A stretch of 64,000 nt of DNA, taken from contig PQXF01000001.1 in NCBI GenBank assembly GCA_003194445.1, positions 140,014-204,013 of the forward strand, written 5' to 3'. The notes below the pieces were generated by a model that made no database searches, was not told where the DNA came from, and saw only the letters and a list, made by a program, of their open reading frames with translations. Within the stretch, counting starts at the first letter, position 1. Each line of letters begins with the position of its first letter. The stretch comes from Candidatus Methanogaster sp. (lineage in GTDB: Archaea > Halobacteriota > Methanosarcinia > Methanosarcinales > Methanogasteraceae). The position numbers and the translations under genes are program-made. Shown one piece after another: positions 5,611-62,070 of the stretch.

Positions 5611-5770
5611 TCTAAAAATCCGAGTGTTTTCCACCGATTCACTCGATTCGTGCCATCCGTGACTGCAAGCATAGCGAGCAAGCGCCGAAGGCATAAGATC
5701 AGCACCAATAGATCACGAATGACAGCGAATGACGCGAATTACATGAATTTGGTTACCACATATCATTCTA
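5611..5770 (+). repeat. Dispersed repeat family 1 (CGAAT-rich element), copy a
   Basis: TCTAAAAATCCGAGTGTTTTCCACCGATTCACTCGATTCG...AGCACCAATAGATCACGAATGACAGCGAATGACGCGAATT aligns with 12316-12494 and with the reverse complement of 33258-33477. Confidence 0.8.
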
Positions 5771-6750: not shown

Positions 6751-7098
6751 TCAAGATATGGGTCTCTGGCATCTCGCGTTACGGTGACCAACACCCCTGG
6801 GACTTTTTGATATTTTCGAAATAAAGTTTCGGAAGACCACAGAGGATACAGAGTGACACAGAGGGGGCGAAGGATAAGAATAACATCTCTCTGTGATCCT
6901 CTGTGCTCTCTGTGCTCTCTGTGGTTTAATCTTCCTTATCATAACGATCTCCGGAAGAGTGAAAAAGTGCATACGCCCGCGAATTACATAAGAACCGAGA
7001 TTGGCTTCAATCGCTTTCTTCATCACACAGCGGGAATTGGTATTCGGATTAGGGTGGGAGCTATAATACACATTCGTATCAAGATATATCCTCAGCAT
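6751..7098 (-). pseudogene. PIN-like (VapC-type) N-terminal remnant running into repeat family 3
   Basis: Begins MLRIYLDTNVYY, a DTN motif typical of PIN N-termini. From about 7005 downwards the reading frame is encoded by the repeat element, so only about 30 N-terminal codons (7005-7098) lie outside the repeat. Confidence 0.3.
6769..7005 (+). repeat. Dispersed repeat family 3 (CCACAGAG..CTCTGTGG element), copy a
   Basis: About 230 bp aligns with 36646-36875 (ATCTCGCGTTACGG.GACCAA...GACTTTTTGATATTTTCGAAAT...GTGGTTTAATCTTCC...TCCGGAAGAGTGAA.AAGTG.AT). The core recurs inverted at 48935-49010. Confidence 0.8.
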
Positions 7099-12063: not shown

Positions 12064-12531
12064 ATGACCAAAGGCGAACCAGAGGCGAGGACTTATCTTT
12101 TCAGGGTGGTGGTCGAACCGGATGAAGATCGATGGCATGCCTACTGCCCAGCCCTTGAGGACATCGGGGGTGCTACGTGGGGACATACTAGAGAAGAAGC
12201 ATTAAAAAATATAAGAGAAGTGGTTGAAATGATAATAGAAGAACTCATCGAAGACGGAGAACATATACCTGAAGCTTTAGAAAATGAAGTTCGGATTTTC
12301 CCTGAATCGGCGCTATCTAAAAATCCAATGGTTTTCGACGATTTACTCGATTCGTGTCATTCGTCTATTCGTGGAATTCGTGATAAAATCAGCACCAATA
12401 GATCACGAATGGTAACGAATGACGCGAATTGCACGAATGTTCGAAGACGTGTACACCACCATAAAATCAAAGTGTTTTCAATGGAGTTTTCGGTTGCACC
12501 CTCTGAACCAATGGTAATGGTAACAGCCTGA
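12064..12531 (+). CDS. HicB-like antitoxin (UPF0150 fold) with a repeat element inserted near its 3' end
   Basis: YLFRVVVEPDEDRWHAYCPALEDIGGATWGHTREEALKNIREVVEMIIEELIEDGEHIP is HicB/UPF0150-like. Codons from about 12316 to 12494 are encoded by repeat family 1, and the frame stays open through it. Confidence 0.55.
   Translation: MTKGEPEARTYLFRVVVEPDEDRWHAYCPALEDIGGATWGHTREEALKNIREVVEMIIEELIEDGEHIPEALENEVRIFPESALSKNPMVFDDLLDSCHSSIRGIRDKISTNRSRMVTNDANCTNVRRRVHHHKIKVFSMEFSVAPSEPMVMVTA
12316..12494 (+). repeat. Dispersed repeat family 1, copy b (inside hicB-like gene)
   Basis: TCTAAAAATCCAATGGTTTTCGACGATTTACTCGATTCG...AATCAGCACCAATAGATCACGAATGGTAACGAATGACGCGAATTGCACGAATGTTCGAA...CACCACCATAAAATCAAAGTGTTTTCAATGGAGTTTTCGG. 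Confidence 0.8.
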
Positions 12532-33257: not shown

Positions 33258-33477
33258 CAATCGCAAACTCCAGTGAAAACGCTCTGATTTTATGGTGGTG
33301 TGCACGTGTTCGAACATTCGTGCAATTCATGCAATTCGCGTCATTCGTTACTATTTGTGATCTCTTGGTGCTGATTTTATGCCAACGGCTTCGCTCGCTA
33401 CGCTCACAGTCACGAATGCCACGAATAAACGAATGGCGCGAATCGAGTAAATCGGCGGAAATCACTGGATTTTTAGA
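33258..33477 (-). repeat. Dispersed repeat family 1, copy c (longest)
   Basis: The reverse complement reads TCTAAAAATCCAGTGATTTCCGCCGATTTACTCGATTCG...AGCACCAAGAGATCACAAATAGTAACGAATGACGCGAATTGCATGAATTGCACGAATGTTCGAA...CACCACCATAAAATCAGAGCGTTTTCACTGGAG. Confidence 0.8.
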
Positions 33478-36645: not shown

Positions 36646-36875
36646 GTTATCTCGCGTTACGGCGACCAAAACTCCGGAGACTTTTTGATATTTTCGAAAT
36701 AGGGTTTTTTGGAAAGCTGTATGGGAACAGAGTGGCACAGAAGGGATGAAAGATAGAAATAGCAACTCTCTATGATCCCCTATGCTTTTTGTGGTTTAAT
36801 CTTCCATAATATGACCGGATCCTCCGGAAGAGTGAACAAGTGTATGCACTCGCGAATTACCAGAGAGGTATAGTC
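36646..36875 (+). repeat. Dispersed repeat family 3, copy b
   Basis: Aligns over about 230 bp with 6769-7005. Preceded at 36393-36440 by a fragment of family 1 (TCTAAAAATCCGAGTGTCTTCACTGATTAATTCGATTG). Confidence 0.8.
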
Positions 36876-38780: not shown

Positions 38781-38977
38781 CTCTGACCATTGAAGCAAGA
38801 ATAGTTCCCTCATACGATAGGTTATCAGGTTGGGTGCGTACAATGGCTACGGTTTGTGAGACCCCACCCAAAAGATACTACCAGTTAAGTGTCTGAACTA
38901 AACGGATACCACTTCACTTACACCATGGTTTCAGCAGTTTGAAAAAGCTCAAGTTGTGGCGGTGCGAAGTAGGGTTG

Positions 38978-39503
38978 TCGGTGTATATCAGTGGCACTGG
39001 TTACGATTTTTTCCAGAAAAAAAGAGATTTTGTAGCCTGTGAAACCAGCAATGCCGGGTTAAGGATCGTCAACCCGGGCGGAGATCCCCTGATCCGAACT
39101 CCCGGGCAGACCTTCTCCTTCACCCGACCATGCTATGCTTCACTTCGAGGTAACTCTTGAGACCATGCATCCCAAGTTCCCTGCCAATCCTGCTCTCGCG
39201 AGTACCTGCCAAACGGCGCATACTTCGGAGCGCCATGATACGTATCGATCCACACCGTTCCTGCCCGGATGTGGCTTGCAACCCTCTTTGTACGAGAAAC
39301 ATCCTCTGACCAGACCGCTCCGGCAAGCCCGTACCTTGTCGTTTGCGATCCCGATTCCATGTGATCAAATATCGTCGGCTCGACAAAGTAGCCAGCCTGG
39401 TCAAGACGTTTCCCACTGGTTACGAGTTCTGCGCCATCCTCGATGATCCGTCAGGATCGTCGAGTCCGTCCCCGATCACAAGCCGTCTCGTCTCTGCGAC
39501 CGT
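38978..39503 (-). pseudogene. Duplicated 3' fragment of the aldehyde dehydrogenase gene plus its downstream flank
   Basis: Aligns with 40740-41402 at high identity, including 143 bp past the stop codon. Two internal deletions correspond to about 41110-41188 and about 41288-41346 of the intact gene. The stop is at 39120-39122. Confidence 0.85.
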
Positions 39504-40123
39504 CATTTCTTTCGCAGTACATATCCCACAAGCAGAAGCAGCCCAATCGAGAACAGTGCTACCGTTGGAAGCTCGGGGATCGGGGGTTCGGGATCAGAAA
39601 CTTGTACACTATAATCTTCTACTTCGCCGTAGCCGATGGGGCCGTATGAGGGCGGTTCTGAGCCCTCTTTTAGAGAAACACGCATTCGTGTTGTTGTTGT
39701 CGACCCATTCGGAACAGTAATAGAAACTGTATGTGGTCCGCCAGTATAACTCCCATTTGCCACTACAAATTTTTCGTCCGTATCGTTGAAGTCTTCGTCC
39801 TGATTCCAATCAATCCAGGCTGTTATATAACAGGCAAAAGCGTCAGGATGAATCGTTACAGACAAATTGTATGAGACACCTCTACTTACTCTTGCGCTTA
39901 TATTTGTATAATTCCCATATCCATCGGTTTCTTTTCCGGTAGTTTCGTTTATCTCGGAAAAATTCACATTAGTAATCCATTCATACTTGGTATTACCATT
40001 AGAATCCGGATAAGCAGCTAATGCACTTGGCGCACACAGCACAAGTATCACTGCAACCAAAATGGAAAATCCCAAAGGCTTTATGTTACGGCTCCCTCTT
40101 CTATTTCGCACTTTTATATCCAT
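39503..40123 (-). CDS. GEVED-domain secreted protein with PEF-CTERM-type sorting signal (putative archaeosortase substrate)
   Basis: Signal peptide MDIKVRNRRGSRNIKPLGFSILVAVILVLCAPSALA and GYGEVEDYSVQV (GEVED motif). The C-terminus is PEPPIPELPTVALFSIGLLLLVGYVLRKK: a PE(F/L)P motif, a TM helix and a basic tail. Confidence 0.7.
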   Translation of the reverse strand: MDIKVRNRRGSRNIKPLGFSILVAVILVLCAPSALAAYPDSNGNTKYEWITNVNFSEINETTGKETDGYGNYTNISARVSRGVSYNLSVTIHPDAFACYITAWIDWNQDEDFNDTDEKFVVANGSYTGGPHTVSITVPNGSTTTTRMRVSLKEGSEPPSYGPIGYGEVEDYSVQVSDPEPPIPELPTVALFSIGLLLLVGYVLRKK

Positions 40124-40382
40124 ATTTACCACCCTTTTTGCTTTATCTTCGCCCACGTATACCCCATTTATGATTGGTAGCAGGGACATACGAGTATGCT
40201 ACAATGTCTCTTCGTTGTACCACCTATAAAAGCTTTTCGGTTTTTTTTGGGGCTGTCACAGTATATGGCGTTTAAGTCATATCTTCATCGGTGGTGCGAT
40301 TGGATAAGCCCAGATATAATATGAAATCTCTTGAATGAATCTCGCTCTTGGGCAAATAACATTTAACCTGTGTCCATCTGGG

Positions 40383-40440
40383 AAATCTGTGGCTGATAAA
40401 AGCTTTTAGCCACAGATTAACACTGATTACACAGATTTTA
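40383..40440 (+). repeat. Hairpin repeat family 2 copy
   Basis: AAATCTGTGGCTGATAAAAGCTTTTAGCCACAGATTAACACTGATTACACAGATTTTA. Confidence 0.75.
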
Positions 40441-40882
40441 TCTACAACTTACTTGAACATACTCATGGAATCGTATGTAGCACCAGATGGCGTGACAATC
40501 TCGGTTTTTTACGATTGTAAAAACGTTAAAGATACTCTCCGCACGAAATTACGCTATTCCGGTTTTATTCTACTATCAACACAAAAGATGGACCGTTGAG
40601 GATCTATCGAGAGAAGAATGCGGAAGAGGCGAGTCCGATAATGATTTATCAGTGCAAGATTGACGAAAATGTAAAAAGATTCGAAGAGAAGTTCTGAACG
40701 CGAAAAGTGTACGCGATCTTATGAGCCTTGTACCAGTCATCGGCGTATATCAGTGGCACTGGTTATGATTTTTTCAGAAAAAAGAGATTTTGTAGCCTGT
40801 GAAACCCACAATGCCGGGTTAAGTTGGGCTGTCAACCCGGGCGGGGACCCCCTGATCCGAACTCCCGGGAAGACCTTCTCCT

Positions 40883-42289
40883 TCACCCGACCATGATATG
40901 CTTCACTTCGAGGTAACCCTTGAGACCATGCATCCCAAGCTCCCTGCCAATCCCGCTCTCGCGATACCCGCCAAACGGCGCATACTTCGGAGCGCCATGA
41001 TACGTATTAATCCACACCGTTCCTGCCCGGATGTGGCTTGCAACCCTCTTTGCACGAGAAACATCCTCTGACCAGACCGCTCCGGCAAGCCCGTACCTTG
41101 TATCGTTCGCGATCTCGATAGCTTCCGCCTCATCGCTGTACGTCAGCACAGACAGCACCGGTCCGAATATCTCCTCTTGTGCGATACGCGATCCCGATTC
41201 CACGTGATCAAATATCGTCGGCTCGACAAAGTAGCCAGCCCGGTCGAGACGTTTTCCACCGGTTACGAGTTCTGCACCATCCTCGATCCCGTATCTGATG
41301 TATCTCAAGTCTTTTTCCATCTGCTCGGGACTTATCACAGGTCCCATGTCAGGATCGTCGAGTCCGTCCCCGATCACAAGCCGTCCCGTCTCTGCGACCA
41401 TCAGTTCCATGAACCGATCGTGGATGCTCTCTGGTAGAAGCAGCCTCGAACCCGCGGTGCATACCTGCCCCGCGTTAAAAAACATCGCAAAGACGGCACC
41501 CTTCACCGCCTTTCCTATATCTGCGTCACCGAGGATTATGTTTGCGGATTTCCCACCGCATTCGAGCGTTATCTTCTTGAGATTCCCTGACGCATCTCTC
41601 ATGACCTCTTTTCCGGTCTCAGTTCCCCCGGTAAACGCAATCTTGTCGACCTTTGCGCTTCCCGCAAGTTCTGCCCCGGCAACGCTCCCCTGTCCAGTGA
41701 TCACGTTTACCACACCTTTCGGGCATCCTGCCCTGCTAAATATCTCGCCAAGTTCGAGCGCTGTTAGAGGGGTCTGGCTTGATGGCTTGAGTATGATCGT
41801 ATCTCCCGCGGCAAGTGCTGGCGCAACCTTCCATGACGCCATCTTAAGCGGCAGGTTCCACGGGACGATCCCTGCAGCAACTCCGGCTGGCTCGTAGTAG
41901 ACGGTGCTCTGGGCGCCAAGTTCCTCGACAAGCGGCTCTGTGAAACCCGCGTAATACTCGAAGAAGTCTGCCACGTCAGGGACGAACCGCGTTGCCCAGC
42001 CAATCGGCATTCCGTTATCCAGCGTTTCAAGGCGTGCGAGTCGATCCGCGTCCTTGCGGAGGAGTTCTGCTGCTTTCAGGAGGACGATCTTCCGGAGTGT
42101 GTGGTTCCAGCTCCAGTCGGTGTTGTCGAACGCGTCACGCGCTGCATCGATCGCTTTTCTGGCATCCACGCGTCCACCGTCTGCGACGGTTGCGATTCTC
42201 TCTTCTGTCGCCGGGTTAGTTACTGAGATTGTATTTTTAGACTCCGGTTCAGTCCATTCGCCGTTGATCCAAAGTTTGTATTGTTTCAT
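40883..42289 (-). CDS. NAD(P)-dependent aldehyde dehydrogenase
   Basis: 468 aa. Catalytic Glu (LECGGKSANII) and Cys (FFNAGQVCTAGSRLL) motifs and the GSVAG NAD-binding region are present. Confidence 0.9.
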   Translation of the reverse strand: MKQYKLWINGEWTEPESKNTISVTNPATEERIATVADGGRVDARKAIDAARDAFDNTDWSWNHTLRKIVLLKAAELLRKDADRLARLETLDNGMPIGWATRFVPDVADFFEYYAGFTEPLVEELGAQSTVYYEPAGVAAGIVPWNLPLKMASWKVAPALAAGDTIILKPSSQTPLTALELGEIFSRAGCPKGVVNVITGQGSVAGAELAGSAKVDKIAFTGGTETGKEVMRDASGNLKKITLECGGKSANIILGDADIGKAVKGAVFAMFFNAGQVCTAGSRLLLPESIHDRFMELMVAETGRLVIGDGLDDPDMGPVISPEQMEKDLRYIRYGIEDGAELVTGGKRLDRAGYFVEPTIFDHVESGSRIAQEEIFGPVLSVLTYSDEAEAIEIANDTRYGLAGAVWSEDVSRAKRVASHIRAGTVWINTYHGAPKYAPFGGYRESGIGRELGMHGLKGYLEVKHIMVG

Positions 42290-42522
42290 GATTGCTTACT
42301 CTTTAACCAGTGACTTGTGATCCCATTGTACAAAAAATGTAACTACTCGGGTACCTAAACCACTGTCAGGGAACTTCACTATATATGCAGACTACCCTAT
42401 CCGGGACATGGGGCATACTGTAACCAAGAGTCTTTTTATTATTTTCTGGGAACGTCGGATTGTCTTACGCGACCCCAACTGTTAGAATGGAGCACTATCG
42501 ATCTGAAAATCCATTTACATCG

Positions 42523-42580
42523 TTAATCTGTGGCTAATACTGTTTTTTATCCACAGATTAACACCAATTTCACTGATTAC
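42523..42580 (+). repeat. Hairpin repeat family 2 copy
   Basis: TTAATCTGTGGCTAATACTGTTTTTTATCCACAGATTAACACCAATTTCACTGATTAC. Same orientation as the copy at 40383. Confidence 0.75.
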
Positions 42581-42703
42581 CCCCATCTAATCATATTTGT
42601 ATCTGCCTGATTGGCGTCACGTTTTCAACCGACCAGGACAAATTCAAAAGACCCACTATGTTTTTTACGCTTGAATGCGGTAGTGCGTAGCAGGACGGAG
42701 ACA

Positions 42704-43546
42704 TTAACCTTTTGCAAATCTCGGATAGCAGATGATCAGGATCGGAATCATGAATAACACGATGACGAGCAACCATCCCCACAAACCGAGATCCATGAGC
42801 TGGTATATGATGAGTTTTTCCTCTTTTTTGAACTCAAACATGTGTGGAAATGCCTCACTCAAAAATTCCTTCTCCATTTCGAGTACATTCTCATAAGATC
42901 CGGATAATGGGGCGAGTGCAGAAACCCGGATCATCGTAATGGTATTTGAGGTAAAACCCCTGTTCAGGTAGAGATACAGAACAACCCTTCGCTCTGTGAT
43001 TTTTCCCTTCGATTCCTTTACCACAACGAGTTTCTTGACGGAGATTGATTTATTTTCTTCTTCACTTTTCTTATATATAGAAAACTCTTCTTCCCAGCCC
43101 ACATTCTGCATAGACACAGGTACCTTCTCCTTACCTTCCTCCTCTATCGTGTATCCAAGGCTAGGATAACAGACGATTGGCGGATGGAAACTTGAACGAT
43201 TGTCCGATTGGATGATGAGGAAGAATAAGGGTTGATACGATTCAGGATTGGTATATGCACGCATAAGCATGACGTCTGCATCCAATCCAGATGCACGATT
43301 AGCAGTATTGTAATTAGATCCCCTCCAATGACCTATCTCTATTGGAAATTCATTCATACAGTCATCGCTTCCGAGATCCATCCTTGTTCGAACCGTCATT
43401 GCGTCTCTTGATGCGCGTGCAAGTTCGGTGTCGATCGCGGTGGCGGATTTGGAAAAGAGCATGGACTGATTCGAAAAGAGCATGACAATTACTAATGTAA
43501 GCACCAGAAGTCCAATGATCGGGGCATATTCTTTAAAGAAGTTCAT
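42704..43546 (-). CDS. EpsI-family (exosortase-associated) protein
   Basis: N-terminal TM, then FPIEIGHWRGS....LDADVMLMRAYTN....PLFFLIIQSDNRSSFHPPIVCYPSLGYTI matches the EpsI signature (W.G, Y, H.P..C...G). There is an extra C-terminal TM. AAGGAGG lies 6 nt before the ATG at 43546. Confidence 0.7.
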   Translation of the reverse strand: MNFFKEYAPIIGLLVLTLVIVMLFSNQSMLFSKSATAIDTELARASRDAMTVRTRMDLGSDDCMNEFPIEIGHWRGSNYNTANRASGLDADVMLMRAYTNPESYQPLFFLIIQSDNRSSFHPPIVCYPSLGYTIEEEGKEKVPVSMQNVGWEEEFSIYKKSEEENKSISVKKLVVVKESKGKITERRVVLYLYLNRGFTSNTITMIRVSALAPLSGSYENVLEMEKEFLSEAFPHMFEFKKEEKLIIYQLMDLGLWGWLLVIVLFMIPILIICYPRFAKG

Positions 43547-44363
43547 TCTGTCCTCCTTTTTCCCCAATCCTGCATTTCATTAATTTACTGATGATTATCA
43601 GGGATATAAATGCGATGATAAATAAAAAAGGGCTGGAAAAATCATGGAATAACCTCATTGCAACCTCCGCGCCATGATGATCCGCGATCAGGATTATGGC
43701 GGTGACTCTGATGATATTTGCAACGATTGCGACTGGAATCGTTATGCAGAAAAGAGCGGTTTTTGTTAGAAGTGGGCATTTTAATAGGTAAGCGAAAATG
43801 GCAGATACCGCCAGTAATGAGATGAGCGTATTCATCCCGCTGCAGGGCAGACCGATAGAGAATGAACAATCCGTGAGTTGGATTTCAGATCCTGTTTGTA
43901 TAACTGCGACTCCAAGCATTTCAAGAGTCAGCGCGGAATAGCGTGCTGATATCGATTGGAGGGTGACTGAGATAGCAGGCACCACCGGGATCGGGATTGC
44001 GAATATCAGGAATAGCACAGGGAATAGCAGCGATCTCATCATCTCTTTTCCATACAGATAAAGGATCAAGCCGCAGAGTACGAACAGAAAAGAGATCGCG
44101 GATAAGAAGGGGAAGATCATGATGGAGCCGATGATGTAGAGAATAATGCCGAATGTCAAGGGGATTATTCCGGGTTTGAAAGGATCAGTATCGCGCATGT
44201 CTTTATCTCTCACGCTTCTCCATGCGAAGAATAACGAGACGATCGGGATTAATACGCCGTGAGAATATACCTGGTCAGTGAACCATGTATTGGCAAGCCA
44301 GACGAATGTGCGAAGATACATGAGGGATAAGAGGGACACGAGCAGGATCGTGATCTTTTTCAT
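43533..44363 (-). CDS. Archaeosortase/exosortase-family transpeptidase
   Basis: W.TDQVYSHGVLIP N-terminal motif, catalytic Cys context IGLPCSGMNTLISL, conserved Arg in IVANIIRVTAI and a downstream His. 276 aa, polytopic. Confidence 0.8.
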   Translation of the reverse strand: MKKITILLVSLLSLMYLRTFVWLANTWFTDQVYSHGVLIPIVSLFFAWRSVRDKDMRDTDPFKPGIIPLTFGIILYIIGSIMIFPFLSAISFLFVLCGLILYLYGKEMMRSLLFPVLFLIFAIPIPVVPAISVTLQSISARYSALTLEMLGVAVIQTGSEIQLTDCSFSIGLPCSGMNTLISLLAVSAIFAYLLKCPLLTKTALFCITIPVAIVANIIRVTAIILIADHHGAEVAMRLFHDFSSPFLFIIAFISLIIISKLMKCRIGEKGGQNELL

Positions 44364-44553
44364 TGATGATTATTTATTTCTCCAGACCTTATAAGCATAT
44401 CCCACAAACGCGAGCAAGCCAACTGAAAAGGGGATCAATAAGCTCAGTTCAGGGGTCGGATGTTATTTCTCTGAATCATAAGCCTATCGTTCACAGGGCA
44501 TCACACCATAAGACGCGACAGCCCGATGCCATGGAGCCGTAAACATCTTTACC

Positions 44554-46462: not shown

Positions 46463-46562
46463 CCGCGCATATATGAGAGTATCAATCATAGGCACCATCT
46501 AAAAATCCAGTGATATCCACACTTTCTGCCAACCACGCACACCCAACTCCCCTCATCTATAG

Positions 46563-46690
46563 GTGACGAAAGTCCCAGACCAGAAAATCCACACCAGATT
46601 TTCCACATTTTCCCGACAAAACCACGAAAACTGTCCGCACAGCAGTCAAAAATTGATAGCCACTGCTAAGGACACTTACACATCATTCAC
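46563..46690 (+). repeat. Dispersed repeat family 4 (about 125 bp), copy a
   Basis: GTGACGAAAGTCCCAGACCAGAAAATCCACACCAGATTTTCCACATTTTCCCGACAAAACCACGAAAAC... matches the reverse complement of 60195-60325 at roughly 80 percent identity. Confidence 0.7.
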
Positions 46691-51777: not shown

Positions 51778-53514
51778 TTAGTAGACGGACATGAGATTGT
51801 CCCCTGCACCCACGCTATCGCCTTCAGAGACGAAGATCTCCCTGACGATCCCGCTGTGCTGGGAATGGATGTTGTTCTCCATCTTCATAGCCTCGATCAC
51901 CGCAACGACATCGCCCTCCTCGACTACGTCCCCTTTTGAAACTTTCAGCCCGAGAACCATTCCGTGCATGTTGCTTGCTATCCCGCCTTCTACGGACGCG
52001 GTGGGCGACTTCGCATCGCCGGCATCGTTGGCCACAGTCATCTCACCAGCCCCCGTGGCGAGGACCTCGACAACGAACGGCTCTCCATCGACTACCACCT
52101 TGAATTTGTTAAATATTCCAGTATGCGACTCCACTCCACTGCCACCGGTTGCCGCTGCCGACTTTAACTTCTCTTCCTCTGCCTCGCCCATAAGGAACTT
52201 CGGAGCGATCTGCGGATAGATCGCATAAGTCAAGACATCCTCCTCTTTCCCGATGATGCCGAGTTCCTGTGCTTCTTTTGTCCGCATCTCAAGTTCGGGT
52301 GGGAGCAGGTCGGCAGGTCGGCATGTTATAGCCGCACCATCACCAAGCACTTTTGCAAGCAGCTGCTTGTTGATCGGCGCAGGCGGTCTTCCGTATATGC
52401 CGCTTACATAGTCCCGCACCTCCTTTGGTATGACCTTGTACCGCTCGCCCATTAAGACATTCAGGACCGCCTGAGTGCCCACGATCTGACTGGTCGGCGT
52501 TACAAGCGGCGGATAGCCAAGATCCTCCCGCACCTTCGGCATCTCTTGAAGCACATCGTCATACCGGTCCATCGCGTTCTGTTCCTTAAGCTGCGATACC
52601 AGATTTGATAACATTCCCCCCGGTATCTGGTGGATCAGGACGCTCGTGTCGATCTTCTCGGATACCGGATCGAGGATGCTTCTGTATTTTTCTTTTACCC
52701 CGTCGAAATACTCCTTTATATCGGTCAGGAGAGTAAGGTCAAGACCGGTATCGTACGGTGTTCCATCAAGCCCTGCAACCACAGTCTCTGTCGGCGGCTG
52801 GGATGTGCCGCCTGCAAATGGAGAGAATGCGGTATCCAGTATATCAACCCCTGCCTTGCAGGCAGCCATGTAGCTCATGGGCGCCATCCCGCTGGTGCTG
52901 TGCGAATGCAGGTCAACAGGCAGCCCGACCTCGTCCTTGAGTGTCTTGATAAGGTCGTAAGCGGCGTGCGGCGAGATGAGACCTGCCATATCCTTTATGC
53001 AGATAGAGTCGCAGTCAAGCGATGCCAGTTCTCTTGCATTAGCGACGAACGTCTCTATCGTGTGCACAGGGCTTATTGTGTAGCTGATCGTCCCCTGAAC
53101 GTGCGCACCTGTTTTCTTTGCTGCAGTGATTGCAACCTCCATATTCCTGATGTCGTTTACGGCATCGAAGACCCTGAATATCTCGATTCCGTTTTCTGCT
53201 GATTTTTCAACGAATTTGATTACAATATCATCAGGATAATGCCGGTATCCGACAAGGTTCTGCCCCCGAAGGAGCATTTGAAGCGGGGTCTTCCTGATTT
53301 CATCCGCAAGGCTTCTCAGCCGGTCCCATGGGTCTTCATTCAAGAACCGGATGCAGACATCAAAGGTTGCACCGCCCCAGACCTCGAGCGAGAAGAAGCC
53401 GACGCTGTCCAGTTTCTCTGCGATCGGGAGCATATCCCGAGTCCGCATCCTGGTTGCGATCAGGGACTGGTGCGCATCCCTTAGCGTGGTATCGGTTATT
53501 GCTACTTGCGTCAT
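51778..53514 (-). CDS. pycB: Pyruvate carboxylase subunit B (carboxyltransferase plus biotinyl carrier domain)
   Basis: [13 protein letters not shown] start, HMGL-like TIM barrel and a C-terminal biotinylation motif (IEAMKMEN). Confidence 0.9.
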
Positions 53515-53678
53515 ATTACTCTTCCTTTCCTTGTCCTATCCCCTATTAAAAATCTTGCTTAGGCAAAAGATGTTAGCTTGATCGGTTGATGTTGAATATC
53601 CTGCCGGACTCCACGGTTCGATAATTCACTACTTCTCGCGAGTATTCCTTGTAGTATCTCACCTATGCGCTATTTTAT

Positions 53679-54083
53679 TCATCTGGGGTATGCAACGGGT
53701 TCCGGTATGTAACCCGGTCCCATATCAGAGATCGATTTCAGTTTTTCTGGCTTACTATCAAATACATTTGACCACCAATCCGGCAGATTTTCAGAATATA
53801 TATCCCTCTTACCGTTCACATATTTAATCTTTAAATTGCGAGTTATGCTATCATTGACTTTCAAAGTTGCTTTTTCCGTATCATCGATCACTATCTCGAC
53901 TAAGTTTTCATCCTTGTAGATGCAGACGGTTTTATCGTCCCTTGATTTTCTGATTTTTGCACCTTTGGTCCAGCCGATGTTACAATCATCTCTAAGGTAT
54001 TCTAAGAGGTTCTCCTCATCATCTAGGTTCTTCTCATCTTCTATAGGAATGTTGTCCCAGCTAAACAAATACTTTTCAGACAT
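53679..54083 (-). CDS. Small soluble protein of unknown function, paralogous to the central domain of the adjacent membrane protein
   Basis: 134 aa, AT-rich. LFSWDNIPIEDEKNL..LLEYLRDD..GWTKGAKIRKSRDDKTVCIYKDENLVEIVI aligns with residues about 110-170 of the 54088..54882 product. Confidence 0.6.
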   Translation of the reverse strand: MSEKYLFSWDNIPIEDEKNLDDEENLLEYLRDDCNIGWTKGAKIRKSRDDKTVCIYKDENLVEIVIDDTEKATLKVNDSITRNLKIKYVNGKRDIYSENLPDWWSNVFDSKPEKLKSISDMGPGYIPEPVAYPR

Positions 54084-54087
54084 ATTT

Positions 54088-54882
54088 TTACCTCCATAGT
54101 ATGGTTTTAATGATCAAACATATAAATGTGATGATGGAAAGGATAAAAAAGCATATAGCAACAGTAAACCACTTCATCGACGTGAGATACTTTTCTGTAT
54201 TGTAGTTATAATCTTCTTGGAGCTGTTGTAAAAAATGCCGGGTTAGTTCTTCTCCGGAACTGTACAAAAAATTATATAATGTATCATCATATACCCTTAA
54301 CTCACCGTTCTCCTCTTCTTCAACGTTTAGTTTGTGGACTCTGTCTTTACCGAATCGGTCTTTACCGAGTATTAGAGCTGCCATCTCCTGGTCATCAGCA
54401 ATTTTTATTTCGACTAAGTTTTCATCCGTATGGATGCAGATGGTTTTACCATCCGTGGATTTGTCGATTTTTGCGCTTTTCATCCAACTAAGATAGAAAT
54501 AATTATCTATAAGGTATTTTAGAAGTTTCTTGTTATCTTTTCCCGGGACGTTGTCCCAGCTAAACCAATGCTTTTTTTCAAAGACTTTCAACTCCCTATA
54601 CTCGGTCGGAAAGAAAATTAAAACAGTTATGCAAAACGCGATGGCCGAGAAAGTAACAAAACCACTCAATAGTACAGTGTCCATGTATGTAAGTTCCCAT
54701 CCTGTTCTATGCAAAAATAATACCAATGCCAAAATAATTGAAATACTGGTTAAAATTATTCCCAGAAACGCTGAATTTCGGTTAGTTAGGCTAAAAATGG
54801 CGTTCTTTCTTCTTTCGAAAACTTCATTCCCTCGGTCGAGGAGAATCTTATACTTGTCTATTTTGTCTTCTTGTAACGCCAT
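54088..54882 (-). CDS. Three-TM membrane protein of unknown function with inserted soluble FSWDN-type domain
   Basis: ATG at 54882 (MALQEDKIDKY..). The track ORF extends to a GTG at 54897. Two N-terminal TM helices, a soluble domain (WFSWDNVPGKDNKKLLKYL...KTICIHTDENLVEIKI), a helical segment and a C-terminal TM. There is a 4-nt gap to the downstream gene. Confidence 0.6.
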   Translation of the reverse strand: MALQEDKIDKYKILLDRGNEVFERRKNAIFSLTNRNSAFLGIILTSISIILALVLFLHRTGWELTYMDTVLLSGFVTFSAIAFCITVLIFFPTEYRELKVFEKKHWFSWDNVPGKDNKKLLKYLIDNYFYLSWMKSAKIDKSTDGKTICIHTDENLVEIKIADDQEMAALILGKDRFGKDRVHKLNVEEEENGELRVYDDTLYNFLYSSGEELTRHFLQQLQEDYNYNTEKYLTSMKWFTVAICFFILSIITFICLIIKTILWR

Positions 54883-54908
54883 CTTCCCACCCCGCACCGT
54901 ACTAAATC

Positions 54909-55114
54909 ACCGAATGCAGACATCAAAGGTTGCGCCACCCCAGACCTCAAGCGAGAAGAAGCCGACGCTGTCCAGTTTCTCTGCGATCGGAGCATATCCC
55001 GGGTCCGCATCCTGGTTGCGATCAGTGACTGGTGTGCATCCATTAGCGTGGTATCGGTTATTGCTACGTGCGTCATTTCACTCTTCCTTCCTTGACCTAT
55101 TCCTTATTAAAAAT
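54909..55114 (-). pseudogene. Orphan duplicate of the pycB promoter-proximal region and first ~56 codons (frameshifted)
   Basis: Aligns with 53346-53553 at about 93 percent identity with two 1-bp indels. Translation is [29 protein letters not shown], then out of frame. Confidence 0.85.
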
Positions 55115-55377
55115 GGCGATCGTTCAAGTGGGTGTTGCATGAGATTGTTAGGTCACGCGAGTGGCTATGGCGCGTGGACAAATTGGCGCAATCAAAATTA
55201 TAGTGAAAAGACTTCTGATTGTGGCAGCCAAATTCGTGCAATTCGGGGAATTCGCCCGCATTCGTGTTTAAAACCTGCACACACGTTTTCCGAAGCTATC
55301 ATCAGATCCGGCCACACTGCCAAAAGTTGCAAAAAAACAGATGCAAAAAGAAAAAAGGGTGCGTGGGTTACCACGCT

Positions 55378-57130: not shown

Positions 57131-57237
57131 TTGTGGTGGCGAGTGGGAGTCTTTCTAATTTCATCTGGTCGGTTGAAAAACACGATGTCAATTCTGCAAA
57201 CACTGGTATGATTGGGTGGTGGAATCAGTGAAATCGG

Positions 57238-57297
57238 CGTTAATCTGTGGCTAAAACTTTTATTTGCCATAGATTAACACCGATTACGCAGATTAAC
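57238..57297 (+). repeat. Hairpin repeat family 2 copy
   Basis: GTTAATCTGTGGCTAAAACTTTTATTTGCCATAGATTAACACCGATTACGCAGATTAACGG. Confidence 0.7.
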
Positions 57298-57565
57298 GGT
57301 GTAAACATCTTTTTAGATCGATAGTACCACATTCTGGAAGTTGTGCTTACCTAAGACAATCCGACATTCCAGAAAATAATAAAGAGCCTCGCGAGTGGTT
57401 GTCGGCTTGCCACAAGCGTTTGCACAGGGTTGGCAAATCTCCGAGTTTTTCAGATGTTAGGAACCGACACAGCAGAGACAAGACTCGGATCGACAACCTA
57501 CTGCCTGCCGCTGCCGGAACAATGCAAACATCCGGACAATGCCGGATAACTTCACAGCTGTACCG

Positions 57566-57916
57566 CATATCAAAAATACCTAAAAGAAGACAAGCTCACC
57601 AACAAATTGTTAAGGAGATATGCGAGCGGGAGTGTGGGAAGTGGGGAGTGGGGGTTAGTGTGGTTAAAAAGGTTTTAGAAACCCGCTCGCATAGTATACC
57701 ACTTTACGGGATAGTATATAAACCTTTCTACTCGGCAAATCATATCAAAAATACCTAAAAGAAGACAAGCTCACCAACAAATTGTTAAGGGGATATGCGA
57801 GCGGGAGTGTGGGAAGTGGGGAGTGGGGGTTAGTGTGGTTAAAAAAGGTTTTAGAAACCCGCTCGCATAGTACACCACTGTTATGCGGCGGTATATAAAC
57901 CTTGCGGCTCGGTAGG
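57566..57916 (+). repeat. Tandem duplication (2 x about 175 bp), each unit with a 12-bp-stem hairpin enclosing a G-rich loop
   Basis: Units start at 57566 and 57741 (CATATCAAAAATACCTAAAAGAAGACAAGCTCACC...). TATGCGAGCGGG (57619-57630) pairs with CCCGCTCGCATA (57682-57693) around GGGAGTGTGGGAAGTGGGGAGTGGGGG. Each unit ends with GTATATAAACC. Confidence 0.9.
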
Positions 57917-60194: not shown

Positions 60195-60325
60195 TAGAGG
60201 ATCGACCCCTTGTCCGCATGTGTTTATAGTCCTAACGGGAATTGCTGATGTGCATACGGTTTTCGTGGTTTTATCGGGAAAATGTGGTAAATCCGGTCTG
60301 GATTCTCTGGTCTGGGACTTTCATT
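60195..60325 (-). repeat. Dispersed repeat family 4, copy b (forms the 3' end of the helicase ORF)
   Basis: The reverse complement GTAATGAAAGTCCCAGACCAGAGAATCCAGACCGGATTTACCACATTTTCCCGATAAAACCACGAAAACC matches 46563-46690. Confidence 0.7.
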
Positions 60326-62070
60326 ACATACCGGCGAGGGAGTTTAGGTGGATGTGGTGGGCGGAAAGTATGGATATCACTATATTTTTCGACAGTACCC
60401 TCTACATCATACCCCTGCCCCATATCGCTTAAGTCCTGCGTATACCACTTCTTTGATTCGGACTTCACGAGGTATGCTGGCAGTAGATAAGAGAAGGCAC
60501 CTTCCGACGTATGTTTTTTGAACTTCGCAGTGGCAATTCCTCCCTTTGCCGGCTTTACATACAACCTCTCAAAGGACTCTCTGACGATCCGCCATACCCT
60601 TCCACCAAGCACAAATATCTCGTCAACCGGATACTGCACCTCACCGATTGTTTGCCTGGAACTGATGTCTATAACCGCAACCACTTTGTTTGATGGAATA
60701 TTCGAATGAATCTCCCCTTTTGCTCCAAGATCCATCAATCTGGTTGTTGCACGCCACTTTTCATTCCATTTTTCGATCCATTCGCTCTTTGCAAGGTGAC
60801 TTAAGATGTCGCGCAGTTCGTCTTCCGGACAGAACCCTTCGAAAAGATTCAGAAGGTGGAAATCGGTAAGCCCACATGGGCTGGCATAAAGCGAGGAGAA
60901 GACCTGTTGCACCACAACAGACGGATCGTGCAAGTAGTCAACCGGTTCGAGGTATCCTGCCATCGCAACGTGAAACATACGTTCAAGCAGCATCTGTTCA
61001 TCCGCAGAACCATACATGGCAAAGACGCGGTTTCGTTTCATACGCCGGCTCCCCCGCCCAATCCGCTGGAGCAGCGATGATATGCTCCACGGGACTTCTG
61101 CAAGCACGATGGCATCGATATCTCCGATATCAATTCCTATCTCAAGCGTCATGGTAGCCACGCAGACTCCATACTGCGCGTCCTTCATGAAACTCTCGGC
61201 TTCTCCGCGAATAGATCTGCTCAAACTGCCATGATGGACAACGACGCGGCTATGACCCCAGAGATCCATGCATTCCCTGGAAAACCCCTCCACTGTTGCT
61301 CTCTTATTGCAAAAGATGAGCAGCTTCCGGATGTTCTCTCTTTTTACGCAGCCATATAGTTCTTCAGCCGATTCTACAAGCGTGTACTCAATTTCTCGTT
61401 TATCAGAGTCTGTGATTACCTCAAAATCTCCAAGATATCTGCTCCCCACCTCCTCTGGAGATGCTATAGTGGCAGAGAGGGCATAGACGTTGAAATCTCT
61501 TTCTGAAAGATGTCTTAGTCTTTTTAAAAGGATCCTGAGTTGATCTCCTCGATATGTGTTGTCGATAAGATGTATTTCATCGAGTATCACGGCTTTTATC
61601 TTCTTAAACGAGCCGGGGTGTCTGCAAATCATCGAATCAAACGACTCGGGTGTGGTGATCAAGACGTCCGGAGACTTGGCCGGGTTAAATCGTGGCGTAT
61701 CACCGGTCTTTAACGACACCGAGACTCCAAGTTCGTCCATCTGCTCCTTGAGGCGGTCGTGCATATCATTAACCAGTGCCTTCGTCGGAGAGATGTAGAG
61801 GATCGTAATGCCATTCATGCCGCCCCACGCTTCCTTCAAATGCCTCTCGATAAGCGGTGCAATCACAGCTTCGGTCTTTCCACTGGCGGTAGATGAGATG
61901 ATGATTGCGTTCTTCCCGGTAAGGACCACAGGAACAGAACGCGCTTGAATCGGAAGGAGCCTACCGTACCTACCAAAGAAAGTAATCCACGTACGCCTGA
62001 GCTTTCGTCTGTCAGAATCCATCCGGCAATTCCCCGATCGGCTTATCAGGATGCGAACGAGCAGGGTCAA
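60271..62070 (-). CDS. DExH-box superfamily 2 helicase (Lhr/Ski2-like)
   Basis: Motif I (SSTASGKTEA), Ia (ILYISPTKALVND), II (ILDEIH), SAT (LSAT) and motif VI (QRIGRGSRR) are present. The start is uncertain; the ATG at 62022 (MDSDRRK) is plausible. The last ~20 codons lie in repeat family 4. Confidence 0.8.
   Translation of the reverse strand: MTLLVRILISRSGNCRMDSDRRKLRRTWITFFGRYGRLLPIQARSVPVVLTGKNAIIISSTASGKTEAVIAPLIERHLKEAWGGMNGITILYISPTKALVNDMHDRLKEQMDELGVSVSLKTGDTPRFNPAKSPDVLITTPESFDSMICRHPGSFKKIKAVILDEIHLIDNTYRGDQLRILLKRLRHLSERDFNVYALSATIASPEEVGSRYLGDFEVITDSDKREIEYTLVESAEELYGCVKRENIRKLLIFCNKRATVEGFSRECMDLWGHSRVVVHHGSLSRSIRGEAESFMKDAQYGVCVATMTLEIGIDIGDIDAIVLAEVPWSISSLLQRIGRGSRRMKRNRVFAMYGSADEQMLLERMFHVAMAGYLEPVDYLHDPSVVVQQVFSSLYASPCGLTDFHLLNLFEGFCPEDELRDILSHLAKSEWIEKWNEKWRATTRLMDLGAKGEIHSNIPSNKVVAVIDISSRQTIGEVQYPVDEIFVLGGRVWRIVRESFERLYVKPAKGGIATAKFKKHTSEGAFSYLLPAYLVKSESKKWYTQDLSDMGQGYDVEGTVEKYSDIHTFRPPHPPKLPRRYVMKVPDQRIQTGFTTFSR

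Follow-up and report, generated by a model that had tools for sequence, protein, structure and literature searches.

In a 64,000-nucleotide stretch of a metagenome-assembled genome (MAG) of Candidatus Methanogaster, a member of the ANME-2c group of anaerobic methanotrophic archaea (ANME), an intact aldehyde dehydrogenase (ALDH) gene is separated from a second, degraded copy of its own 3' end by a segment carrying the gene for a putative surface protein with a GEVED domain (C4B59_00705). This stretch is referred to here as the window, and the order of intact ALDH gene, unique GEVED segment and 3'-end duplicate, proposed in an earlier sequence-only reading of it, is confirmed by alignment. We interpret the arrangement as the fixed, decaying scar of a single insertion-duplication linked to an insertion sequence (IS), an interpretation to which we give an even chance of being correct. 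As such, the locus presents an ordinary, known kind of IS-associated rearrangement scar and not a new mobile-cassette system or class of element. Its value lies in showing how a housekeeping locus has been remodelled in an archaeal methane oxidiser that is known from enrichments and metagenome assemblies alone: illegitimate joins linked to an IS would have placed an exosortase pair of bacterial type and a rapidly diversifying surface protein to either side of ALDH, leaving dated scars that can be followed from strain to strain.

The duplication consists of a direct repeat in which copy A (38978-39509) aligns with copy B (40740-41407) in blocks of 88-97% identity, a similarity far beyond chance. 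Specifically, copy B comprises the 3' 525 nt of the intact ALDH gene (468 aa), from approximately codon 295 to the stop codon, followed by 143 nt of downstream flank, in keeping with the last ~520 bp and 143 bp of flank initially recognised, while the true extent of the two copies exceeds slightly the 38978-39503 and 40740-41402 first proposed. Identity between the copies is 93.8% across 389 aligned columns of the coding part, and 11 of 140 positions differ between flank A and flank B. As originally noted, copy A has suffered two internal deletions, one of 81 nt (B 41102-41182) bounded by CGCGATC/GCGATC direct repeats and one of 55 nt (B 41288-41342); it additionally carries a 1-nt insertion, as well as a 3-nt indel in the flank. 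For annotation, the interval 39120-39509 should be recorded as an ALDH pseudogene fragment and ~40545-40739 as an IS remnant.

Where the GEVED gene meets the ALDH remnant, the join is illegitimate, unlike the border of a self-contained cassette. Homology to ALDH was at first thought to end exactly at the GEVED stop codon; it runs instead to 39509, placing the TGA of the GEVED gene (39503-39505) inside ALDH-derived sequence. The ALDH gene reads ...TTC ATG GAA CTG ATG GTC... in its own frame and ..GG AAC TGA TGG... in the alternate frame, and since the AAC TGA of ALDH is read out of frame, the GEVED stop codon is ALDH-derived. The GEVED gene ends ...CTG CGA AAG AAA TGA in the window and ...AAG AAC TGG CGG CCG TAG in the related-strain contig L044. 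With the join the gene lost its own stop codon and, to judge by related C-termini, no more than a few further codons.

The opposite border is of a different nature. The unique segment had been described as holding only the GEVED gene and a hairpin repeat, yet it also contains the remnant of an IS481-like element, composed of the last ~44 transposase codons (40566-40694), a stop codon (40695-40697), a terminal repeat AAGGCTCATAAGATCGCGTACAC at 40707-40729, and a terminus at 40739. Copies of the element in unrelated contexts (L048 and L052) define its terminus as ...CCTTACCA(C/G)TTA, and the corresponding sequence of the window, ...CCTTGTACCAGTCA, when aligned to these termini ends at 40739, with flank B starting at 40740. 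The B-side boundary of the duplication is thus the IS end, to the nucleotide. In other strains the end of the element reads ...GTTA|TCGG, with the arrangement unchanged. Only the right end of the IS (40707-40739) is present, the left end having been deleted. With respect to family, a 116-aa open reading frame (ORF) of L048, similar to 40570-40723, belongs to a large group of mostly fragmentary proteins of ANME and Methanosarcinales, the longer members of which carry rve_3 and helix-turn-helix (HTH) domains, and a near-full copy of the element from the same sample (L050) carries HTH_23 and rve; the best NCBIfam family is IS481, at 88 bits, which is below its cut-off of 224 bits.

Comparison with related strains demonstrates that the arrangement is real. 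The contigs available, drawn from five other assemblies, are Ga0136651 (n=2), Ga0164318, Ga0164315 and ERZ27245762, as well as a Logan contig from SRR6664620; an exact 23-mer from the shared flank retrieved three contigs from the JGI metagenomes, and protein look-ups retrieved two more. At 83-94% nucleotide identity to the window, these strains display an unchanged architecture, and both junctions (GEVED gene to ALDH codon ~295; flank to IS terminus) are identical in every contig that covers them. One 1.3-kb contig from another metagenome and a different strain, L041, extends from within flank B through the IS stump, the GEVED gene and the remnant to a point within flank A; in L042 the genes for the trypsin-like and CarboxypepD_reg proteins are linked with flank A, with the remnant and with the 3' end of the GEVED gene; L043, L044 and L045 join the GEVED gene to flank B and ALDH; and the Logan contig is identical to the window across the junction of the GEVED gene with the ALDH remnant. 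That two strain variants of one ALDH locus were concatenated during assembly might be suspected from the origin of the window in a MAG and from the ~94% identity of the copies, which is typical of strain-level divergence. However, copies A and B have different neighbours on both sides, the junctions are reproduced in L041, four further contigs and the Logan contig, and the pseudogene lesions of copy A are common to strains, so that an artefact is extremely improbable and the duplication is real. The assembly artefact named at the outset as a possible refutation is countered by independent assemblies of related strains, in which the same junctions are recovered.

The same comparison places the event in time. 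A frameshift (GGATCATCGAGG) and a lesion after GATCCTGAC are common to all A copies in the multi-strain alignment, while the large deletions of copy A are strain-specific, namely 81 and 55 nt in the window versus 232 nt in L041 and L042. The sharing of junctions and lesions across strains indicates that the event predates their divergence, and copy A formed only slightly before that divergence. Silent-site divergence among the strains is ~0.1 in neighbouring genes. When the differences between the copies were polarised with seven outgroups, 17 derived substitutions fell on the A branch versus 3 on the B branch, though approximately 5 of the 17 adjoin an indel and may be alignment effects; the A-derived changes show no bias toward third codon positions, and between strains the A copies diverge 3-5 times more than the B copies. 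This asymmetry, together with the lack of third-position bias, argues that copy A started out near-identical to copy B and was a pseudogene from then on. Accumulated changes of this kind suggest that copy A was never functional and has undergone neutral decay since its formation. Gene conversion holding the two copies alike left no clear signal in the coding part.

Copy B bears no mark of a foreign source. It is 87-91% identical to the seven outgroups in its 5' part and 88-94% in its 3' part, and a sliding window along it reveals no step in divergence at codon 295, which argues that its 3' end was not imported and led to rejection of a foreign origin for that end. In one contig, L045:1-541, an otherwise intact ALDH gene has an extra base and changes near its 3' end (GGGTAATCGCGAGCACGG), reflecting either a sequencing error or a loss of ALDH function in that strain.

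The ancestral state of the locus was read from eight species-representative MAGs of relatives, each covering parts of it. In these, the order is a GHMP kinase gene, a gene resembling those of small heat shock proteins (sHsp), ALDH, a spacer of 150-430 nt, Yip1 and VWA, with ALDH at 88-92% nucleotide identity and its orthologues at 88-93% amino acid identity. The sHsp-like gene, identified by eye, is seen between the kinase and ALDH in L002 (9469-9936), L004, L007 and L008. None of the eight relatives has an exosortase, EpsI, GEVED, CarboxypepD_reg or trypsin-like gene at the locus. The comparison of orthologous ALDH loci, suggested with the initial proposal, thus yields the ancestral order without the insert and no case of a duplicated end without an insert. 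Two blocks of the window are derived: one at 42.3-44.46 kb, in which the truncated tail of a gene encoding an LTD-domain protein, an exosortase gene and an EpsI gene replace the sHsp-like gene, and one at ~36.85-40.88 kb, which holds the rest of the inserted material. Upstream of ALDH, ~50 nt of the ancestral promoter are retained, as found by promoter alignment. Downstream, the 143-nt flank is unrelated, from the stop codon onward, to the corresponding sequence of all eight relatives (L002-L009), which indicates that an earlier rearrangement had already ended exactly at the ALDH stop codon and, further, that a junction at a gene end is what selection tends to leave and is not the signature of a mechanism.

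Taken together, these observations can be ordered into a single series of steps. In the common ancestor of the ANME-2c strain cluster, once the cluster had split from the species-level relatives, the right terminus of an IS481-like element, beyond whose left end lay the GEVED gene, would have been attached precisely where the 143-nt flank ends, a join that is itself observed; the incoming DNA's far end would have entered ALDH at codon ~295 by an illegitimate join, 0.66 kb behind the first. The stretch from one junction to the other would thereby have become the direct repeat around the insert, as seen in the topology of the locus. The route envisaged is a one-ended or uncoupled strand transfer by the IS end, followed perhaps by replication through the IS into adjacent donor DNA and by resolution through template switching or end-joining. 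The upstream ALDH gene would have stayed whole and functional while the downstream partial copy decayed, with different deletions in different strains; the IS would later have lost all but its last ~0.2 kb, and in this strain alone a miniature inverted-repeat transposable element (MITE) would then have landed upstream of the GEVED promoter. The most economical account is one concerted event, with an IS end as its driver and the second join displaced by 0.66 kb; with the steps beyond the topology conjectural, it commands about half of our confidence.

Several considerations weigh against this account. IS481-type target duplications are short (4-15 bp), and the duplication around the whole insert, 0.66 kb and not a few base pairs, lies far beyond that range, making the proposed route a non-canonical one deduced from topology. 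The left end and most of the body of the IS, by which a two-ended event could be recognised, are lost. The donor locus, in which the IS would lie beside a GEVED paralogue, was not found. A scrap of the same IS in inverted orientation lies upstream of ALDH (42656-42672), so that IS scars bracket the intact gene, as would fit a copying of ALDH itself, and a similar duplication at pycB, described below, is without any detectable remnant of an IS481-like element.

Parallels for parts of the proposed route can be found among known elements. The nearest mechanism, one-ended transposition with capture of adjacent genes, is exemplified by ISEcp1, by IS91/ISCR and by the one-ended events of Tn21/Tn1721. 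As in those cases, the ALDH locus has one junction that coincides precisely with an IS end and another at a variable point outside the IS, and a neighbouring gene travels along. The known one-ended cases produce short target duplications or none, in contrast to the 0.66 kb of target duplicated here, where the IS is now a 0.2-kb stump, and we know of no such events for the IS481-like family. Nothing relevant on IS elements that make long target duplications came up in a literature search.

Among the rivals, the one favoured by the inverted scars supposes that a whole copy of ALDH and its flank was placed upstream of the GEVED gene, whether between two inverted IS copies that enclosed the segment or through tandem duplication with reciprocal loss, and that the redundant original was then truncated by a deletion reaching from the GEVED stop codon to codon ~295. 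The ALDH segment (42655-40740) is indeed bracketed by inverted IS scars, with the right end pointing inward at flank B; a deletion removing the GEVED stop would yield the junction observed; and the exosortase and EpsI genes would once have been contiguous with the gene of their putative substrate, explaining their linkage. Such a history nevertheless requires at least three events, and the flank on the A side is followed by non-IS sequence, where the source copy would be expected to have retained its IS. Moreover, copy A shows no constrained (synonymous-biased) phase, the window holds no leftover of an earlier GEVED copy or of the ALDH 5' part, and the similarity between the window and L048 that had hinted at continuity of an island is merely a copy of the IS. 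We therefore regard this history as unlikely, with a minor but appreciable share of the probability. To a Campbell-type or unequal homologous exchange, in which ALDH 3' end, flank, IS and GEVED gene were carried on a circle or on a sister or foreign chromosome and recombined with an insert-free locus, we assign a small chance. This reading, in which the donor was itself formed by one illegitimate join, and which includes homology-facilitated uptake from a related strain, needs only one illegitimate junction to reproduce the exact topology of intact gene, insert, truncated copy and long direct repeats; homologous recombination could act on repeats of this length, strain mosaicism in the GEVED gene is evidence of recombination within this population, and e14 at icd in E. 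coli leaves an intact gene and a C-terminal icdC pseudogene (PMC13626634). Yet it needs both a donor, such as a pre-formed circle, with the IS and GEVED gene after the same 143-nt flank and an insert-free recipient, neither of which was found, and the 17 versus 3 derived changes imply copies near-identical at the start, against a divergent donor.

Implied in the sequence-only reading was a discrete and possibly excisable cassette, a notion corresponding to a decayed site-specific integrative element of the e14/icd type, or to an integron-like cassette, with the repeats acting as attL and attR and excision of a circle possible. The closest architecture described, icd-e14-icdC, resembles the locus in that the gene is kept intact and a displaced 3' end, now a pseudogene fragment, lies across the insert from it; the prophage e14 measures 15 kb and is excised upon SOS induction, and the direct repeats of e14/icd could recombine to remove the insert (PMC13626634). 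At the ALDH locus, however, when every ORF between 33.5 and 45.6 kb was scanned with Pfam and NCBIfam, none proved to encode an integrase or recombinase; tRNA and Rfam features are lacking near the site, and there were no matches to viral contigs. Unlike e14, which possesses its own integrase, a short att core within the repeat and an element-borne replacement 3' end, the borders here are an IS terminus on one side and an illegitimate join on the other, and the 3' end of the intact copy shows no foreign divergence. Apart from the GEVED gene, the 1.2-kb segment comprises just a MITE and a transposase stump; its one strong hairpin is located upstream of the gene and is missing in four other strains, and so is not an attC, and the ORF is followed directly by ALDH-derived sequence with no attC at its 3' end. 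The junctions are fixed in all covering strains while one repeat decays, and neither an empty site (intact ALDH and its 143-nt flank running directly into ...CAACCCTACTTCGC), nor a second genomic context for the GEVED gene, nor a duplicated ALDH end without an insert was found in any strain. The cassette notion is consequently very unlikely. Other readings were set aside on more direct grounds: simple tandem duplication would have duplicated the GEVED segment too, of which only one copy is present; unequal exchange between flanking IS copies (X-IS-X) is at odds with the opposite orientation of the IS scars and with the lack of an IS after flank A; replicative inversion fits the IS orientations and leaves the duplication unexplained; continuation of the exosortase-EpsI island, interrupted by ALDH, into the unique segment, proposed from the match of L048, just downstream of its EpsI gene, to 40570-40723, dissolves because that match is to a multicopy IS481-like element; and a link to viruses or proviruses found no matches.

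Table 1. Features of the ALDH locus and its surroundings, with positions in the window.
Feature	Position	Strand	Basis
Flank A, second copy of the 143-nt ALDH downstream flank	38978..39119	-	Alignment; GC-rich hairpin and T7 tract (fold)
ALDH 3' pseudogene remnant (copy A), codon ~295 to stop, with frameshifts and 81/55-nt deletions	39120..39509	-	Alignment
GEVED-domain surface-protein gene	39503..40123	-	Pfam GEVED 7.5e-19; likely start M23 of mechanical ORF 39503-40189
Candidate BRE/TATA of the GEVED gene, AAAGCTTTTATAGG	40223..40236	-	Read from the sequence; putative function
MITE-like insertion, 254 nt, with 'family 2' hairpin 40384-40421	40247..40500	.	Absent from other strains
IS481-like insertion sequence remnant	40545..40739	+	tblastn 2e-7 and terminus alignment
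Flank B, ALDH downstream flank adjoining the intact gene	40740..40882	-	Alignment
Intact aldehyde dehydrogenase gene (copy B)	40883..42289	-	Pfam Aldedh 552.7 bits
17-nt exact fragment of the same IS (IS nt 79-95), opposite in orientation to the 40545-40739 remnant	42656..42672	-	0 matches expected by chance
EpsI-like gene	42704-43567	-	Pfam DUF3485/EpsI 35.2 bits (cut-off 26.1)
EpsH-type exosortase gene	43533-44363	-	TIGR02602 143.1 bits (cut-off 105.55); Pfam Exosortase_EpsH 182.4 bits
LTD-domain substrate gene remnant, last ~28 codons (PELSLLIPFSVGLLAFVGYAYKVWRNK*), with upstream stops	44364..44440	-	Cut off beside the kinase promoter region

The gene between the repeats does possess the GEVED domain originally assigned to it (PF20009; 68.8 bits against a cut-off of 24.4, over the full model, 1-78), and its product was seen by eye to comprise a signal peptide and a C-terminal PELPT motif, transmembrane (TM) segment and RKK. 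It is the only GEVED protein of this MAG in the database. The ORF is intact in five of five strains, so that we take the gene to be functional, and the signal peptide, the core motifs (WIDWNQDEDFND, GEVEDY) and the C-terminal tail are conserved among the alleles. Pairwise dN/dS for the gene is 0.8-1.5 versus 0.16-0.17 for ALDH and the trypsin-like gene, and the L045 allele is a mosaic of two others, to all appearance L041-like and L044-like alleles, a pattern that fits a surface-exposed, diversifying protein. Outside the strain cluster, the nearest homologues are proteins of 340 aa at 43-48% identity, and at least one of these is encoded on a contig whose gene content was judged by us to look bacterial; inter-domain transfer of the gene is possible.

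Expression of the GEVED gene may draw on both its own and borrowed signals. Its candidate TFB-recognition element (BRE) and TATA-like box have counterparts in AAAGCTTTTATAAG of L043/L044 and AAAGCTTTTACATG of L041/L045. Immediately upstream of this box landed the MITE-like element, flanked by a 10-nt target duplication AAAAAACCGA (40237-40246 and 40501-40510). The hairpin repeat noted earlier in the segment is indeed present ('family 2' hairpin, z = -4.9; related copies at 42428-42649 and 57164-57391) and proves to be part of this 254-nt insertion, which is absent from L041, L043, L044 and L045, where the site is uninterrupted. The MITE-like element is therefore a later arrival with no part in the insertion-duplication. 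At the gene's opposite end, the duplicated flank A probably now acts as terminator, forming the 3' end of the GEVED transcript. Such a role is plausible given its hairpin and T7 tract and its retention in L041 and L042, although most of the internal remnant has been deleted there; a scan for bacterial-type terminators returned no match in flank A or flank B.

Adjacent to flank A, 6 nt from its end, is a 30-mer at 38942-38971 (+), AAAAAGCTCAAGTTGTGGCGGTGCGAAGTA. With 1-4 mismatches, the AAAAAGCTCAAGTTGTGGCGGTGCGAAGTA 30-mer recurs in distant ANME-2 MAGs upstream of differing genes, including ALDH (L018), an aminotransferase-like gene (L016) and an ATPase-like gene (L014), and it may represent a regulatory motif or a mobile promoter-like element.

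The exosortase and EpsI genes lie 2.5 kb from the GEVED gene, on the far side of ALDH. Analysis of the GEVED protein by the PEF/PEP-CTERM models of NCBIfam gave no match at E<=0.1, the enzyme scores 30.7 bits on the archaeosortase C model TIGR03762 (cut-off 100), and the EpsI-like gene falls below the cut-offs of the NCBIfam EpsI models. The 'PEF-CTERM' label initially attached to the protein is accordingly not supported, the motif being PELPT and the enzyme EpsH-type. Like PEP-CTERM/exosortase systems, the locus combines an EpsH-family exosortase and an EpsI partner with a candidate substrate in which a signal peptide, a C-terminal motif, a TM helix and a basic tail can be seen by eye; unlike them, it has PELPT rather than PEP or PEF, matches no curated CTERM model, and belongs to an archaeal host with an enzyme other than archaeosortase C. 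Exosortase-family domains in ANME genomes have been reported earlier (PMC5244752). The tail consensus is P(I/V)PELPT..LFS.GLL.L.GY..RKK, and over its last 31 aa the protein shares 52-58% identity with the C-termini of LTD proteins whose genes directly precede the orthologous exosortase genes of L047, L048 and L049. The tail also matches the LTD stump beside the exosortase of the window and, that stump aside, is the only one of its kind among the ORFs of the 64 kb. On these sequence grounds, the exosortase/EpsI pair is the probable sorting machinery for the GEVED protein, making the latter a concrete candidate for an exosortase-sorted, diversifying surface protein in ANME-2c consortia.

The exosortase-EpsI module is 85% identical in nucleotide sequence to that of L047, L048 and L049, where it occurs in other contexts. 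The 17-nt IS scrap coincides exactly with the point beyond which the module has no further homology to other genomes, and it is also found in the related strains L053 and L054, which suggests that an IS-linked event brought in, or trimmed, the exosortase block too. A 59-nt repeat (6771-6829 and 36649-36707, 88% identity), situated at the edge of the other derived block near 36.65 kb and found in another ANME-2c scaffold as well (L047:11496-11720), is probably another small mobile or promoter element.

The parallel drawn by the sequence-only reading between ALDH and pycB holds in that a duplicated gene end flanks an insert at pycB too. Here, in mirror image, it is the 5' end (~169 nt of coding sequence) and ~40 nt of upstream sequence that are duplicated (53346-53553 and 54909-55115, 93-95% identity), the fragment copy of ~208 nt carrying a 1-nt frameshift. 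The repeats flank a 1.4-kb insert (53554-54908) that holds, on the minus strand, a paralogous pair of genes of unknown function (53679-54083 and 54088-54897), the first of which starts 12 nt after the duplicated promoter and 5' fragment, and a Logan contig from the same sample (L055) spans the insert. With two cases of this sort in 64 kb, a mechanism that recurs is conceivable, though not proven. It is doubtful, with a slim chance of being right, that ANME-2c recurrently installs foreign genes beside housekeeping genes, with a gene-end duplicate of 0.2-0.7 kb donating expression signals. Were this so, the donated signals would be a stop codon and terminator at ALDH and a promoter and 5' end at pycB, 15 kb away, and one-ended IS481-type transposition with template switching could be the route, an undescribed outcome with giant target duplications.

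Further repeats are scattered through the window. A dispersed intergenic family occurs at 5615-5748, 12316-12496 and 33258-33477, in blocks of 56-81 nt with 85-93% identity and in both orientations. A 155-nt inverted repeat (46491-46645 and 60245-60399; 79% identity) has its arms 13.6 kb apart, and a 111-nt direct repeat (57566-57676 and 57741-57851), spaced 175 nt, is 97% identical.

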